A stretch of 64,000 nt of DNA from positions 9,238,001 through 9,302,000 of the forward strand of contig NC_079164.1 in NCBI RefSeq assembly GCF_947568905.1, read 5' to 3'. Shown here piece after piece: positions 55,909 to 64,000 of this stretch (its first letter is position 1; each line of letters opens with the position of its first letter). The DNA comes from Ostrea edulis. Taxonomy: Eukaryota. The notes under the pieces were generated by a model. The model worked only from the letters and a program-made list of their open reading frames with translations. It did no database searches and was not told the origin of the DNA. The position numbers and the translations under genes were made by a program.

Positions 55909-56100
55909 AGTAGTATAACGCGTCCCGATAGGGAGGTCAACTGAGTGCACTTTTTATGCAAATGAGGTCAAGTAAGGGCGTTTTTGATTGGTCAAGCGGT
56001 GTTGGGGTCAACGGAGTGCACTAGGACGGGGTCAACCCCAGCAGGGGTTGTAGAGCGGGTGAATAGACTGGCCTATGGCCGCTGGTCTATGATGCGGTAC
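55909..56100 (+). promoter_or_regulatory. Putative terminal inverted repeat / replication origin of the Polinton
   Basis: Starts AGTAGT; contains ATGCAAAT (55956-55963), five GGTCAA and two GAGTGCACT. The right TIR is not in the window, so the extent is unknown. Confidence 0.6.
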
Positions 56101-56337
56101 TTTCGCTTTGAGTTCCTGGAATGAGTTCCTGCTATTTTTCTGAAAATCGGTATAAAATCCAGTGAAATCCTGTGTATTAAATCTAAAAGAATAACAGTGT
56201 ATTAAATCTAAAAGAATAACACAAGGTTTTAAGTTGACATGTTTATTAAAGAACAATGGTACAAGCATAGAACAATGCAAAACAATTCAATAAGCATAAA
56301 AACAGTTCAATAAGCATAACAGTTCAAGCACAGTCCA

Positions 56338-57575: not shown

Positions 57576-58082
57576 TTAAAAATGGCCGGCTTCATACGCA
57601 GGTTCTTCTATATACACGTGTAAGTCATGATCTTCGGATATAATGTGTTGTACTAATTGTCGAGCTCTTCTCCCGGGGAAACGTATCTCTTCGACGGTTT
57701 CCCACATCCAGTGTGCATCCCAAAACAATACCCATACACTTCTCCGGTAACGTGGTTTCTCCAGTCGAATAAATCCCGATACTTTTTGAGTGCCGTTCAA
57801 TAACGTGTAAAACTGGTAAATCATGTACTGTATGAGGGGGGAATTTTTCAGGTACATGTCACTTAAACGCAGGTAAATATCCTCCACTGTTTCATGTGAC
57901 CGCAATACATAGTCAAAACACCAATTTTTAGATCGGCCCCAGCGTAATCGATGGCGACATCTCTGTACTAAATTGGCCCAGATCTCCATCTCGTCTACAT
58001 AATCTTCTACTATGGTTAAATTCTCCACTGGTTGTATTCCCTGGCCGCGGCGTCTCGCTCTTAAAATTCTCCGTGTATCCAT
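57576..58082 (-). CDS. Protein with degenerate CRESS-DNA virus Rep (HUH endonuclease)-like domain (168 aa)
   Basis: KNWCF (motif I-like) and IQYMIYQ...GTQKVSGFIRLEK......VWVLFWDAHW align by eye to nanovirus/circovirus Rep (IKYMVYQ...GTRHVQGYVEMK......MRGFFPGAHL). Confidence 0.6.
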   Translation of the reverse strand: MDTRRILRARRRGQGIQPVENLTIVEDYVDEMEIWANLVQRCRHRLRWGRSKNWCFDYVLRSHETVEDIYLRLSDMYLKNSPLIQYMIYQFYTLLNGTQKVSGFIRLEKPRYRRSVWVLFWDAHWMWETVEEIRFPGRRARQLVQHIISEDHDLHVYIEEPAYEAGHF

Positions 58083-58117: not shown

Positions 58118-58197
58118 CAGCTGACGTACAGGTGCTTGATCACGTGGTGCAGGTGTTTGATCACGTGATGCATAACCTTTACCTATAAATACAGGTG
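58118..58197. promoter_or_regulatory. Bidirectional promoter between the Rep-like gene and the Bcl-2-like cluster
   Basis: E-boxes at 58118, 58129, 58141, 58150, 58162, 58192; TGACGT at 58122; TATAAATA at 58184-58191. Confidence 0.6.
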
Positions 58198-58221: not shown

Positions 58222-58554
58222 ATGGGGGGCAGTGCTACTACGAGAATAAATGGATATAGTTATGTACTACAATGTATGAACGTGGCCTTACATAATCCTC
58301 ACATTCAAAATGCTCGTCAATTTGTACAACAGATGTCACCGGAGGTCAGAAATGTACATAGTTTTCAACGGATTGCTGATTCATTAGCGGAGAATACCAA
58401 TACGGGACGTTTACTCATGATTTATTTGTATGCTGAGGAATTGAAACAGAATCTTCCAGACCAGATGAGTGACATTGATCGGATCTTACGCGATTGTCTA
58501 CAAAAAGGATTCGTGGAACTGATTCGTATGAAAGGAATGGCTGCCCTGTTATAA
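58222..58554 (+). CDS. Viral Bcl-2-like protein, paralog 1 (110 aa)
   Basis: SFQRIADSLAENTNTGRLLMIYLYAEEL resembles BH1 (F..V..ELF....NWGRIV..F.FG..L); FVELIRMKGMAAL sits at the BH2 position. Confidence 0.65.
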   Translation: MGGSATTRINGYSYVLQCMNVALHNPHIQNARQFVQQMSPEVRNVHSFQRIADSLAENTNTGRLLMIYLYAEELKQNLPDQMSDIDRILRDCLQKGFVELIRMKGMAALL

Positions 58555-58591
58555 AACAAGAACGTTTTAGAATTTTTTCATTTTGATCATC

Positions 58592-58945
58592 ATGGCTGAA
58601 TTGACCAACAACGTTCTTACCGCTGTATTACAGCATTTCGAGGACTACAAAGAATCGGTGAACAACGCTCGTAGCGCTGCATTACGGTGTATCAAGGACT
58701 GGAAAGAAAAACAGCCGTTGAGATATAAATTCGCCATGAAGTTGTTGATCTTTTGGGAATTTCCTATGACCTTATATGAATATTCCAGCGTTTGCAAGCA
58801 TATAGCCGACAACCTGAACAGAGAGTCTGGATTGATCATGATTTATACCATGGACCAAGAATTTAGACGACGGGAACCTGAGAAGACTGGGGCGATTGTA
58901 GCGATTACCGATCACTGGCTGGAAAAGGTGTATAAAAAAACCTAA
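58592..58945 (+). CDS. Bcl-2-fold-like paralog 2 (117 aa)
   Basis: FPMTLYEY...GLIMIYTMDQEFRRREPEKTGAI..I...WLEKVYK is shared with paralogs 1, 3 and 4. Confidence 0.7.
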   Translation: MAELTNNVLTAVLQHFEDYKESVNNARSAALRCIKDWKEKQPLRYKFAMKLLIFWEFPMTLYEYSSVCKHIADNLNRESGLIMIYTMDQEFRRREPEKTGAIVAITDHWLEKVYKKT

Positions 58946-58973
58946 CCGTTTTCTTTTCCTTTATTCCTGGAGG

Positions 58974-59321
58974 ATGGCCAGCAGTGACAACATCGCAGAA
59001 AAAGCGCATAACCATGCATTAGAATGGGTGGAGAAAATGCAAGACGATACGGTGTTTCAAGCTGTTAAAAATTATCTGATAGCGGGGGTGTTTCCAATGA
59101 CTCTGGACGAATATACAGATCTACGGAACCATGTGTACATCAATCTCTATAACGATGCGGGGTTGATGTTAATTTATGTCGCGGGGGAGGAATTCAAGAA
59201 ACGCATGCCTGAAAAAACCGCCGAGATTGAAAGTATCACCAAGGACTGGCTTCGAGAAGTATACATAAAGTGTGAAGAACTTAATTCATTTCATTTATTC
59301 CCGGAGGATGGCCAGCAGTGA
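58974..59321 (+). CDS. Bcl-2-fold-like paralog 3 (115 aa)
   Basis: FPMTLDEY...GLMLIYVAGEEFKKRMPEKTAEIESITKDWLREVYIK. Confidence 0.7.
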   Translation: MASSDNIAEKAHNHALEWVEKMQDDTVFQAVKNYLIAGVFPMTLDEYTDLRNHVYINLYNDAGLMLIYVAGEEFKKRMPEKTAEIESITKDWLREVYIKCEELNSFHLFPEDGQQ

Positions 59322-59613
59322 CCACATCACAGAGAAAGCGATAGTTTATGTATTGGATTATCTCACAGACATTCATTCTGGGCAGTTTGAATTTGTGTTA
59401 CACTATATGCGAGAAGAATTATTTCCCATCAGCTTAAAGGACTATCCATGTCTCTGTCAGTATTTGATCGAGAACCGGATCACCCCGCAAGCCTTAGTAC
59501 TGATTCATTTAATGGGCCAGGAATTGAAACGAATTCGACCCACAGACAGAGCAGAAATCGAGAAAATCAGACTACGATGTCTTCGAGAGATGTACGTCAA
59601 GTTAAACGTGTGA
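59308..59613 (+). CDS. Bcl-2-fold-like paralog 4 (101 aa)
   Basis: Same MASSD N-terminus and 5' nucleotide context as paralog 3; FPISLKDY...ALVLIHLMGQELKRIRP...EIEKI...CLREMYVK. Confidence 0.7.
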   Translation: MASSDHITEKAIVYVLDYLTDIHSGQFEFVLHYMREELFPISLKDYPCLCQYLIENRITPQALVLIHLMGQELKRIRPTDRAEIEKIRLRCLREMYVKLNV

Positions 59614-59795
59614 CTTTTAATCTGGATCAAAATGAAGTGCATCTGTTACCCGAAGAAGACCGGACAAGTATCTGGATGACTGTAGCTGCTGATCGATATC
59701 GATTTCAACGCAGGATTCGAGAAATGGAAAAAATGTTGGACCCTATTTTAAAAAGACATGTGCATTGGTGTTGTGTGTGGGAGTTATGTATTTGA
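59577..59795 (+). CDS. DP71L/ICP34.5/GADD34-type PP1 regulatory subunit (eIF2-alpha dephosphorylation adaptor), 72 aa
   Basis: KRVTF (RVxF) followed by R..IW...AADRYRFQRRIREMEKMLDPIL, matching the PPP1R15 C-terminal motif (W...A.DR.RF.RRI...E..L...L). Confidence 0.88.
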   Translation: MSSRDVRQVKRVTFNLDQNEVHLLPEEDRTSIWMTVAADRYRFQRRIREMEKMLDPILKRHVHWCCVWELCI

Positions 59796-59808
59796 AATAT
59801 GTGACATG

Positions 59809-59814
59809 AATAAA
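59809..59814 (+). terminator. Poly(A) signal closing the five-gene plus-strand cluster
   Basis: AATAAA 13 nt after the DP71L-like stop, followed by GT-rich sequence. Confidence 0.65.
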
Positions 59815-60351
59815 ATTGTTTACACGAAAGCTGTGTTTGGTTGAGTCTCTCAGAGAAGGGTTTATTTGTTGAGGAATCCAGAAAATCCTAAAGGTAGAGT
59901 GAAAATCGAATCAAATAAGGTGTTTTCTATCGAATAGACCTTATGAGATGTTGTTAGGGATGTACATGGTCGAGAAATAAATTTTTAAAGAGGGGGTGAA
60001 GAAACATTGAACCTCGACTCGACCTCTTTAACCGCTGTTTCTTTGAAAACTATGCGACGTAGCAAAATAAAAATAAGTTTAACGCATTCGCCGTCTCAGA
60101 ATCTATCAGATTAAATCTACCTTGCACAGATATCGAATGTCTAGAAAAAGACAATGAGAAAAAACTCTCTACTCGAAAGCACAAATCCGCCATTTTGACG
60201 GCCACCATCTTGGCTTCGTCTCCGAAGCGAGGGATGTTTTCGAGGAGGTCCGCGCTTTCCTGATATATACCGGCGCACTCGCCAGTTCGCTTCACTGGTG
60301 ATCCAGCACAGTTGTAGAAGATTTTTGAAGATTATTTAAGAAGAAAGAAGA

Positions 60352-61140
60352 ATGTCTGCAAGAAGAGACCCGCTCTACAATTTCCAGACCTTGCCTGGAT
60401 TCCGGTACCGGCTCCTAGTGGTGGCTGAGGAACGGGTAGGGGAGAATTGGGTCGTGCGTTCTGAGAACGACCTGAGCACCTTCTCCCCTTTCGACCAGAG
60501 TGGGGTCCGTGAGATCATCTGCCGGGTGCGGGCCGAGTATGAAGGGAGGGCACCCCGCCGCCGCACCGCTCGAATCTCCACGGCCACGAGACCGCGCCGA
60601 CGGGCCCCACAGCCACCCTCACCACCACCACCTTACTCCCCGGTGACGCCTACAACACCACCACCAGCGATCCCATCGGCACCAGTGGAATACAGCCCGG
60701 TGCCGATGAGCGACTCACCAGCGTCACCGGTGGAGTATTCACCGCGGTCACCGTCCCCCGCACCACCTCCCAGTCCAGCCCAGAGTCCGTCGCTGTTGGT
60801 GGCAGCCACGTCATCACCACCGAGACCAGCAGCCCCTGCAAGACCCCCACCACCTACCATCCGGTTTGCAGGGAGGACTCCACCACCGAGACCAACCCAC
60901 GCACCGGTGGCAACTCATCCCCCGAGGAACCACCCTATGACTGTCCCTGGCTGGGCAGATAGGGCGGTTCCCATCTGGTTTAAGTGTCCTGTCTGCTGGC
61001 AAGACAGGGTACACTCTGGAATTACGTGTAGGGGATGTGGGCAGCGCCCAGCTTGCTGCTCGTGCGTGGAAGAGTTACAGGAGCGGCGACACACCCGGGG
61101 ACGGTGCCCGTTATGCCGGTTTACCGGAAGCAGGGAATGA
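60352..61140 (+). CDS. Proline-rich protein with C-terminal C4C4 RING-like finger (putative viral E3 ligase), 262 aa
   Basis: C-x2-C-x10-C-x2-C-x5-C-x2-C-x13-C-x2-C; PPPY motif; TATATA near 60264 upstream. Confidence 0.8.
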   Translation: MSARRDPLYNFQTLPGFRYRLLVVAEERVGENWVVRSENDLSTFSPFDQSGVREIICRVRAEYEGRAPRRRTARISTATRPRRRAPQPPSPPPPYSPVTPTTPPPAIPSAPVEYSPVPMSDSPASPVEYSPRSPSPAPPPSPAQSPSLLVAATSSPPRPAAPARPPPPTIRFAGRTPPPRPTHAPVATHPPRNHPMTVPGWADRAVPIWFKCPVCWQDRVHSGITCRGCGQRPACCSCVEELQERRHTRGRCPLCRFTGSRE

Positions 61141-62557: not shown

Positions 62558-63055
62558 TTACAATACATTCAGTCTTTGACATTGACAAGTTTGTCCTTGA
62601 TGGGTTCTCGGTTTACGGAAGGTCTCTTTAAACCAATCCGCCACAAAACGATCGCGTTGTAAGGCTGTGCCTTTCCAGGGAAGTAACCATTCTCGTACGG
62701 TGCTTCTATGGCGATGGCGTTGATGTAAAAAATACACACAGTATTGTCCACAGACATCCGTATTCAAATCTTGATAACAATGGGTGTTATGAATCCAAGT
62801 CTCTCCGTGGCGTTGAATAAAGTCTTGGATGTCTTTATGGCTGGGAGGTAATCCGTAAGAATCAAAATATTCGACGGTAGGGCTACTCAAATACAAACAG
62901 ACCCAATGCGCTCCAGGGCGATCGTGAGGGTCTGTATTCACCACGATGGCTTTGTGATGAGGTAACAGCTCAGGTATGACATCTCGAGGATACACACCTG
63001 CAAACGCCGGTCCTAAATCTCGTTGTAAAACATCTCTCAATTGCTGAGTATCCAT
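62558..63055 (-). CDS. Adenain-like (C5 family) cysteine protease, Polinton maturation protease
   Basis: GVYPRD, IVVNTDPHDRPGAHWVCLY (catalytic His), EYFDSYG (Asp), YQDLNTDVCGQYC (Gln/Cys). Confidence 0.92.
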   Translation of the reverse strand: MDTQQLRDVLQRDLGPAFAGVYPRDVIPELLPHHKAIVVNTDPHDRPGAHWVCLYLSSPTVEYFDSYGLPPSHKDIQDFIQRHGETWIHNTHCYQDLNTDVCGQYCVYFLHQRHRHRSTVREWLLPWKGTALQRDRFVADWFKETFRKPRTHQGQTCQCQRLNVL

Positions 63056-63062
63056 CTCTCTC

Positions 63063-64000
63063 TTAGTAATCGATACTGACTTCTCGTTGTTTGTTGATTT
63101 CTAGCAGATTGTCGAACACGGCATACACCACACAGTTTAAGGTCCTGGCTACGTTGGCGGCAAATTGCACTTCCACTCTCAAGTTCCCCGTCTGTATGAG
63201 ATGAAATTTATCCGTCTGGGCTTCTTGATCTTTCGTGAAATCCACACACCAGAGGGTGTAACCGTTTTTATACTCTTCCAGGGTAATGTCCGGAGCCCAG
63301 TCCTGACCTAATTTTCCCAAGCCTTTGTACAGACTCAAATACGATCTCAGGTACTGATCGTCGGTGAAATTAGGTTCCAAAGGTCGGGTTTCCATCATTT
63401 CTCCATTGATACTGATTTCTAATTTCTTGACTCTCTCATTTTGGAAATGAAAGGGGTTTCTGGTATTATCCCCATTAAAAGCCGCATTGTCCACAAAGCC
63501 CAACACGATCAGTTTAGGCATCTGTCCTTGAAACAGATGATCGGTGATTTTAGATTGGGTGCCACTAGGAATGGTGAAGGTTTTCACTTCCACTCGTCTC
63601 AATGGATATTTCGCCGTTTGAGTACTCAGTTGCTGATTGATGAGATTAATGATACTCGGCACAGGTTTGACTTTCCTCACCCACAAGATCATACTTTGAA
63701 TGGCCACTTTCCCACTACTCCCGGCAGCGGTCATCATGTAGAACTGGGGTCGAGCGCGATTGAATCGGAGACGGACATCCAAGCCATTAGGGAGACATTT
63801 CTCTTGCTCAAACAAATCCAGATGTAATCGATCCATCAACACGATCTCCTTACTGTCTGTAATCTTCTCGTGACGTTTTCTCAACCCTACATTCTTGGAA
63901 TCATCCGGATACTCGGGAGTCGGAATGACGGCCGCGATGCTGATTTTGTTATTCACTACTGGAAATTCCACAGGAGTTTGAGCCAGATCTTCTAATTTGA
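63063..64000 (-). CDS. Polinton/adintovirus major capsid protein (double jelly-roll), C-terminal part; frame open to the window edge
   Basis: [16 protein letters not shown]...[30 protein letters not shown]...[20 protein letters not shown] are Polinton MCP-type motifs; adjacent to the protease gene. Confidence 0.85.

Follow-up and report, generated by a model that had tools for sequence, protein, structure and literature searches.

A four-gene, Bcl-2-like array in a recently amplified Polinton of Ostrea edulis as a probable host-defence cassette

What are four small, diverging genes doing side by side in a mobile element of a bivalve, and do they descend from Bcl-2 proteins? The genes lie at positions 58,222 to 59,613 of a 64,000-nucleotide stretch of the Ostrea edulis genome (NCBI RefSeq assembly GCF_947568905.1, contig NC_079164.1, positions 9,238,001 to 9,302,000), which as a whole we refer to as the window. 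A first-pass annotation of these letters had proposed that they are Bcl-2-fold-like paralogs, multiplied by accordion-type expansion in a Polinton and directed against bivalve apoptosis and Toll-like receptor (TLR) signalling. On balance we think that the array serves a recently amplified Polinton/adintovirus as a cassette for blocking host defence, and that it comes from one captured, shortened Bcl-2 gene. Its parts are as follows:

58222-58554, forward strand: p1 (slot 1, type C1), 110 amino acids; predicted five-helix Bcl-2-like protein with NTGRL at N60-L64 and an MGG start; predicted BH3-helix binder
58592-58945, forward strand: p2 (type C2), 117 amino acids; paralog without NxGR, found in some copies only
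58974-59321, forward strand: p3 (slot 3, type C0), 115 amino acids; paralog without NxGR
59308-59613, forward strand: p4 (slot 4, type C3), 101 amino acids; predicted five-helix Bcl-2-like protein without NxGR
58951-59006, forward strand: first copy of a 56-nucleotide start cassette, made of the slot-4 leader of the p1-p2-p4 lineage and the body of p3, with the crossover near 58983
59285-59340, forward strand: second copy of the start cassette, comprising the leader and start of p4

The four genes are related beyond chance. The motif L..I(Y/H)....E(L/F)....P.....I..I....L is exact in 4/4 (invariant positions L64, I67, E73, P79, I85, I88 and L93 in p1 numbering), at the coordinates first given for the genes. 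Pairwise identity is 17-38%, and a genome-wide search with p2 recovered p3 at E about 5e-13. Profiles of the p1-type and p2-p4-type proteins match each other with an hhalign probability of 98.6 (E 1e-15), and the four are therefore true paralogs. When 1.84 billion representatives were searched with a profile, 34 proteins reached E <=0.001 (11 of them <=1e-10); they come from short environmental contigs, and the ten clusters looked up have no informative name. In a tree, the NxGRL-bearing p1-type proteins form one side of a 100/100 branch; because this branch takes in outside sequences, p1 must have parted from the others long ago, and NxGRL is kept in distant relatives. The same tree does not support p4 and C4 as a pair, and the statistic for a 'slot4' group is uninformative. 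Viral contigs and JGI metagenomes held no related loci, so that no DNA of an array from another host came to light; the PDB gave no match by sequence, and the Atlas search gave no usable match.

Are these proteins Bcl-2-like in shape? We modelled p1 and p4 and compared them with known structures; the 54-row folding alignments excluded repeat proteins (P0024, P0031, P0038), chimeras (P0029, P0030) and partial or irregular sequences (P0019, P0027, P0028, P0035, P0040). Both models are five-helix, Bcl-2-like bundles of middling score, in line with the fold first suggested for them. Bcl-2 chains from many lineages align to them over 92-101 residues, while non-Bcl-2 matches mostly cover 55-85. The best full-length matches are the apoptosis-blocking viral proteins F1L, M11L, A179L, ORFV125, CNP058 and GIV66, with F1L first or second for both models, and in the viral library the third-ranked match of p1 is a lancelet adintovirus Bcl2 (BFVD A0A5H3CWZ2, 197 amino acids; E 1.1, probability 0.82). 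The central helix begins with NxGRL, at the expected spacing. The seven- to eight-helix set with α1 (BH4) and α7-α8 was not found: there are five helices only, p4 alignments stop at Bcl-xL 184, and α1 is probably missing at the front, judging by spacing (structural ranges are mixed). None of the poxvirus proteins A46, A52, B14, K7, N1 and A49 appears among the 50 matches listed per model, which does not exclude them.

By formal standards the family falls outside Bcl-2 in several respects besides helix count. The curated PF00452 cut-off of 31.4 bits is not reached (p1 scores 17.4 bits), and a match of any strength occurs in 1/13 members and 0/30 relatives. Alignments and hydropathy revealed no BH2 (W..GGW) or BH3 (L...GD) motif and no C-terminal membrane anchor; the best Kyte-Doolittle 19-residue windows of p1-p4 score 0.6-1.06, which bears out the earlier remark that none has a hydrophobic tail. 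The further remark that only p1 keeps both NTGRL and a BH2-position segment holds for the first part: NxGR, as NTGRL or NPGRL with the tryptophan replaced, is present in 106/108 slot-1 copies and 1/278 other family copies (the NWGR form occurs in host genes). The BH2-position segment of p1 reads KGM without WxxxxGGW, a likeness of position only.

To examine the groove of p1, we co-folded it with residues 18-52 of a host Bak-like exon. The model scored 0.78 (best of three controls, 0.01), with at least 91% of contacts shared between runs and a partner pLDDT (predicted local distance difference test) of at least 78; the mark used was passed by 51/78 solved pairs and 2/108 mismatched pairs. The groove is modelled open, the interface involves helices 1-4, and G62 and R63 of p1 contact G30 and D31 of the BH3 helix, the arrangement known from Bcl-xL:BH3 complexes. 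Since many such complexes have been solved, the pass indicates likeness rather than binding and does not single out the real partner. The models thus predict that p1 holds a BH3 helix in the canonical groove, probably working most like the F1L/A179L-type inhibitors; this lends the proposed action against bivalve apoptosis in silico support for p1, and does not extend to p2-p4. The host Bcl-2-family exons, including the Bak-like BH3 QVGRQLARIGDDINRRY, lie at loci L113-L119 and carry names that we assigned by presumed resemblance.

Slot 1 is also the most constrained slot, with a ratio of nonsynonymous to synonymous polymorphism (pN/pS) of 0.30-0.32 and of divergence (dN/dS) of 0.17-0.24, i.e., under purifying selection. 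Values for p2 and p3 are higher (0.60-0.74); C3 has a pN/pS of 1.55 from few sites, and the 3' half of p4 compared with C4 gives 0.23. An MGG start, which fits an N-myristoylation pattern, is found in 106/108 slot-1 copies. A lipid on p1 could hold the protein at membranes in place of the lost tail, such as is carried by nearly all anti-apoptotic viral Bcl-2 proteins (PMC5691641).

Under our preferred explanation, one Bcl-2 gene would have been captured, reduced to about helices α2-α6 and duplicated long ago. R63 of NTGRL would contact the BH3 Gly-Asp of a host Bak-like protein in the predicted groove of p1, which would sequester Bak/Bax-type BH3 helices and so block mitochondrial apoptosis. 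Having lost NxGR and evolving faster, p2-p4 may offer the same scaffold to other host partners or act as partners of p1; they may inhibit NF-κB, bind BH3 partners of their own or form oligomers.

The alternative that survives best, although we regard it as unlikely, is that the paralogs, p2-p4 above all, are A46/A52/B14-style inhibitors of TLR, NF-κB and interferon regulatory factor (IRF) signalling that no longer bind BH3. Absence of NxGR and of a membrane tail together with relaxed constraint is what re-purposed scaffolds would display, and A52 and B14 are examples of groove-less proteins of this fold that inhibit NF-κB (PMC2494871). For slots 2-4 this would be compatible with our preferred explanation. 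However, p1 is modelled with an open groove and the models match apoptosis-type Bcl-2 proteins. M11L and F1L bind BH3 without sequence likeness to Bcl-2 (PMC7022251), so that losing the motif is not losing the groove; the α1 helix that forms the dimer interface of A52, B14 and N1 (PMC7022251) seems absent here; and a 2020 review finds such activity nowhere outside Poxviridae (PMC7022251).

How did the array acquire its present form? The element has amplified recently and has over a hundred copies in the genome. With the array DNA as query, 31/40 scored matches cover the 1.5-kb array at 98-100% identity (a lower bound), and with p2 at least 68 of the 150 scored matches reach 93% identity or more. 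We sampled 110 loci that resemble the array or p2, a biased choice, and sorted their ORFs (open reading frames) into seven types by clustering. The gene order of the window, C1-C2-C0-C3, occurs in 48 loci, followed by C5-C0-C4 (22), C1-C2-C0-C4 (12), C1-C0-C3 (12), C1-C2-C3 (6, one of which merely has a broken p3), C1-C0-C4 (5), a broken or cut gene (4) and a lone C6 (1). Both three-gene junctions were also seen in independent runs. C1 and C5 are alternative slot-1 alleles (43-46% identical) and C3 and C4 alternative slot-4 alleles (40% identical), in each case between near-identical flanks, and C4 replaces C3 in many copies.

The near-identical 5' DNA first noticed in p3 and p4 measures 56 nucleotides at 89% identity (58951-59006 and 59285-59340), and it records how the four-gene form arose. 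Compared with the C1-C0-C3 lineage, the window matches at 93-96% in the p3 body, 97-100% in the p4 leader and 96-98% in the core of the PP1-binding ORF described below (against 76%). Compared with the C1-C2-C3 lineage, it matches at 97-98% in p2 and 97-100% in the p3 leader (against 78-81%). In the p3 gene of the window, a slot-4 leader from one lineage is thus fused, within a common AGTGAC, to a slot-3 body from the other, and the four-gene form is a recombinant mosaic, which p2 appears to have entered from the p1-p2-p4 lineage. Because p3 is such a recombinant, the 5' DNA of p3 and p4 is alike while their bodies are 36% identical; a fresh tandem duplication was rejected as the source of the repeat on the same grounds. 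We infer that the three-gene forms are older. Simple deletion from four genes is a disfavoured origin for both of them, since a p2-type gene occurs in 0/38 further loci (mostly more diverged and older) and the p2-less junction has 16 letters of its own. The elements would exchange entire genes through crossovers between start cassettes that resemble each other. The p2 N-terminus (58592-58708) and some slot-3 alleles (130-residue C0 variants, e.g., L042:2779-3168) contain partial duplications of the first ~22 codons, which are scars of earlier crossovers of this kind. Of the accordion first proposed, then, the variable gene number stands, and what varies it is the swapping of old paralogs (17-46% identical) by recombination.

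Each intact array holds one NxGR gene and two or three others, an arrangement that could also suit subunits of a single oligomer. Much as in domain-swapped F1L, a helix from a neighbour would cover the face of the central helix left bare without α1, with p1 supplying the groove and the others structural or regulatory. We consider this improbable. F1L, a domain-swapped dimer (PMC7022251), is indeed the first or second match of both models, but arrays can do without p2 or without p3, the slots combine alleles freely, and C6 exists on its own in another Polinton family. The latter (L033:2862-4397 and L157, in the same genome) has C6 as its single family gene, 41% identical to p2 and adjoining a CARD-PC4 fusion ORF that is possibly a death-domain decoy.

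A further ORF, unremarked in the first-pass annotation, overlaps p4:

59448-59795, forward strand: GADD34/ICP34.5/DP71L-like ORF in the -1 frame of p4 (PF10488, E 2e-5, 24.9-25.1 bits with a cut-off of 26.1)

Its PP1 motif KRVTF (59604-59618) straddles the p4 stop and is followed by RTSIWMTVAADRYRFQRRI, which fits the published eIF2α-binding pattern except at one position (pattern quoted in PMC5346070). The PP1 motif reads KRVTF in C3 arrays and RKCVTF in most C4 arrays, with RTSIWMTVAADRYRFQRRI after it. C3 copies have an open frame of 73 codons and a methionine 54 codons ahead of VTFN in 62/65; in C4 copies an in-frame methionine at 54-55 (37/40) is the sole start and lies inside the C4 gene. 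The same span holds 3-6 stops in other paralogs. Over the last 54 codons, codon use predicts 2.1-3.7 stops and four alleles have 0 (P = 0.08, 0.009, 0.012 and 0.021, the alleles not being independent). Because the core is under purifying selection (0.22-0.41) and the N-terminal extension is not, the overlap provides a start codon rather than a domain; with a dN/dS of 0.96-2.7, a conserved function of the 52-residue extension is not supported. We also rejected a programmed -1 frameshift from p4 into the PP1 module at GTTAAAC, presumably a slippery-like heptamer, at the end of p4: C4 alleles lack it, and the downstream 96 nucleotides fold worse than 187/200 shuffles (z 1.15). The motifs indicate that the ORF is likely to recruit PP1, and our explanation would have it bring PP1 to dephosphorylate eIF2α, so that translation stays on.

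Two outside proteins (P0014, P0026) carry the family domain in frame with an RVxF/GADD34-like tail, and a one-base shift in a decayed local copy (L127) yields a similar fusion; the former may be real or products of decay or assembly. Stand-alone GADD34-like ORFs, each with its own methionine four codons ahead of the motif, occur in another repeat family (L136-L139, L153, L154), and the 4 kb of sequence retrieved there contain no Bcl-2-like gene. Ahead of p1 (58126-58189) are two CACGTG boxes in a 21-nucleotide repeat and a TATAAA, and AATAAA follows at 59809-59814, directly past the overlapping ORF; the five ORFs may form one transcription unit. No RNA was found over the array, the two RNA runs reaching only 60035-60276.

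ICP34.5 binds Beclin-1, and the tight overlap of the domain with a PP1-recruiting module, fused in frame in the two outside proteins, could mean that the groove targets a Beclin-1-type BH3, the cassette acting ICP34.5-like on autophagy and translation shut-off rather than apoptosis. The viral proteins M11, Ks-Bcl-2 and A179L do hold Beclin-1 in their grooves (PMC5691641). We give this reading little credence, since the overlap involves p4, which has no NxGR, and the shift in L127 leaves the fusions open to doubt. Least probable of all is an unrelated five-helix bundle with convergent Bcl-2 likeness and a coincidental NTGRL, against which stand the shorter non-Bcl-2 matches, the placement, spacing and retention of NxGRL and the canonical BH3 docking of the p1 model.

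The element itself is a Polinton/adintovirus, as first suggested, with the array in its left accessory region. Its other features in the window are:

55909-56264, no strand: left terminal inverted repeat, 356 bp, starting AGTAGT, 95% identical to the right end in L014
56338-57255, reverse strand: accessory ORF of 305 amino acids with two CCHC zinc knuckles (PF00098, E 3e-15)
57576-58082, reverse strand: ORF of 168 amino acids divergent from the array, open in 30/30 copies checked (weak Viral_Rep match, E 0.015)
60352-61140, forward strand: proline-rich ORF of 262 amino acids ending in a RING-like cysteine pattern (by eye; without Pfam match)
62558-63055, reverse strand: adenain, an adenovirus-type cysteine protease (PF00770, E 3e-4)
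63063-64000, reverse strand: 3' part of the probable major capsid gene (by position; without Pfam match)

The element is about 19.7 kb long, its right part lying past the window end, and Pfam identifies adenain, an rve integrase with chromodomain, an A32-type ATPase, a protein-primed PolB and an IAP (the last four beyond the window). Its candidate capsid ORFs have no Pfam match, and the capsid label given above follows position and a presumed resemblance. The ends AGTAGT/ACTACT, with the 6-bp target-site duplication CTCCTT on either side, agree with the published description of Polintons (PMC8097293). Between ATPase and PolB sits the IAP gene (L013:7018-7545, reverse strand; BIR E 1e-15, plus RING), which in our explanation would cover the caspase step. 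The polymerase region of this copy is split in two ORFs of 335 and 799 amino acids (L014:189-1196 and L013:7581-9980, reverse strand). DNA just downstream of the array showed no difference in two runs labelled mollusc metagenome. In the host DNA of the window, strong GC and AT skew blocks at 39001-43000 and 6001-8000 are probably simple or tandem repeats.

Whether animal Polintons live as viruses today is an open question. A 20-kb element that devotes about 2 kb to Bak/Bax, caspases and translation shut-off, with purifying selection and allele swapping, argues for a real host-defence conflict, and a single genome with more than a hundred dated copies gives a view of accessory-gene turnover. 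A BH3-binding five-helix Bcl-2 would, if confirmed, be the smallest working version of the fold, and p2-p4 are direct candidates for asking whether its non-apoptotic use, so far confined to poxviruses, arose twice. To our knowledge, so wide a diversification of the Bcl-2 fold is known only from poxviruses. A bolder and distinctly tentative extension is that the array represents a second, independent radiation: a minimal α2-α6 domain, below the size of the Bcl-2 proteins described so far, with a myristoylated BH3 trap in slot 1 and re-purposed innate-immune inhibitors in slots 2-4, swappable in live Polintons and coupled to an overprinted recruiter of eIF2α phosphatase. If true, this would be strong evidence that these elements meet antiviral defences as true viruses.

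How does the array compare with known systems? Adintovirus Bcl2 and IAP homologs have already been reported (Starrett et al. 2021, PMC8502044): the element class is the same, with anti-apoptotic accessory genes and an IAP in the same genome. Those Bcl2 genes, however, are single and recognisable by sequence, whereas the array has 3-4 paralogs of 100-117 amino acids, nearly invisible to Pfam and overlapping a putative PP1-recruiting gene; GADD and PP1 have 0 occurrences in the available text and part of the supplement of that paper. Neither a Polinton with a truncated multi-gene Bcl-2 family nor one with a GADD34-like gene turned up in our literature search, which covered few subscription papers and included passages of PMC8097293 and PMC11071296. 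Like F1L, M11L, A179L, ORFV125, CNP058 and GIV66, the array proteins have low sequence likeness to cellular Bcl-2 and, as predicted for p1, in-groove BH3 binding; unlike them, they are shorter, arrayed as paralogs, without a membrane tail and probably without α1, α7 and α8. With the poxvirus A46, A52, B14, K7, N1 and A49 they share the derivation of several motif-less paralogs from one scaffold within the accessory region of a viral genome; A52 and B14 are seven-helix proteins whose groove is occluded (PMC2494871), by contrast with five modelled helices and, in p1, a groove predicted to be open. Poxvirus accordions, i.e., transient amplification of a gene followed by collapse, likewise make gene number differ within one population at a host-conflict locus (PMC9973261), but the Polinton arrays showed no fresh identical duplicates and instead recombine old, divergent paralogs of different lineages. 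Finally, the overlapping ORF resembles GADD34, herpes simplex virus ICP34.5 and African swine fever virus DP71L in having an RVxF-type motif followed by a sequence close to the eIF2α-binding pattern (its 72-residue short form recalling short DP71L), and differs in sitting in a Polinton over a Bcl-2-like gene, inside which, in C4 arrays, its sole start lies. What sets this abundant Polinton apart is thus a recombining array of a minimal, probably Bcl-2-derived family together with the putative PP1 recruiter that overlaps it.
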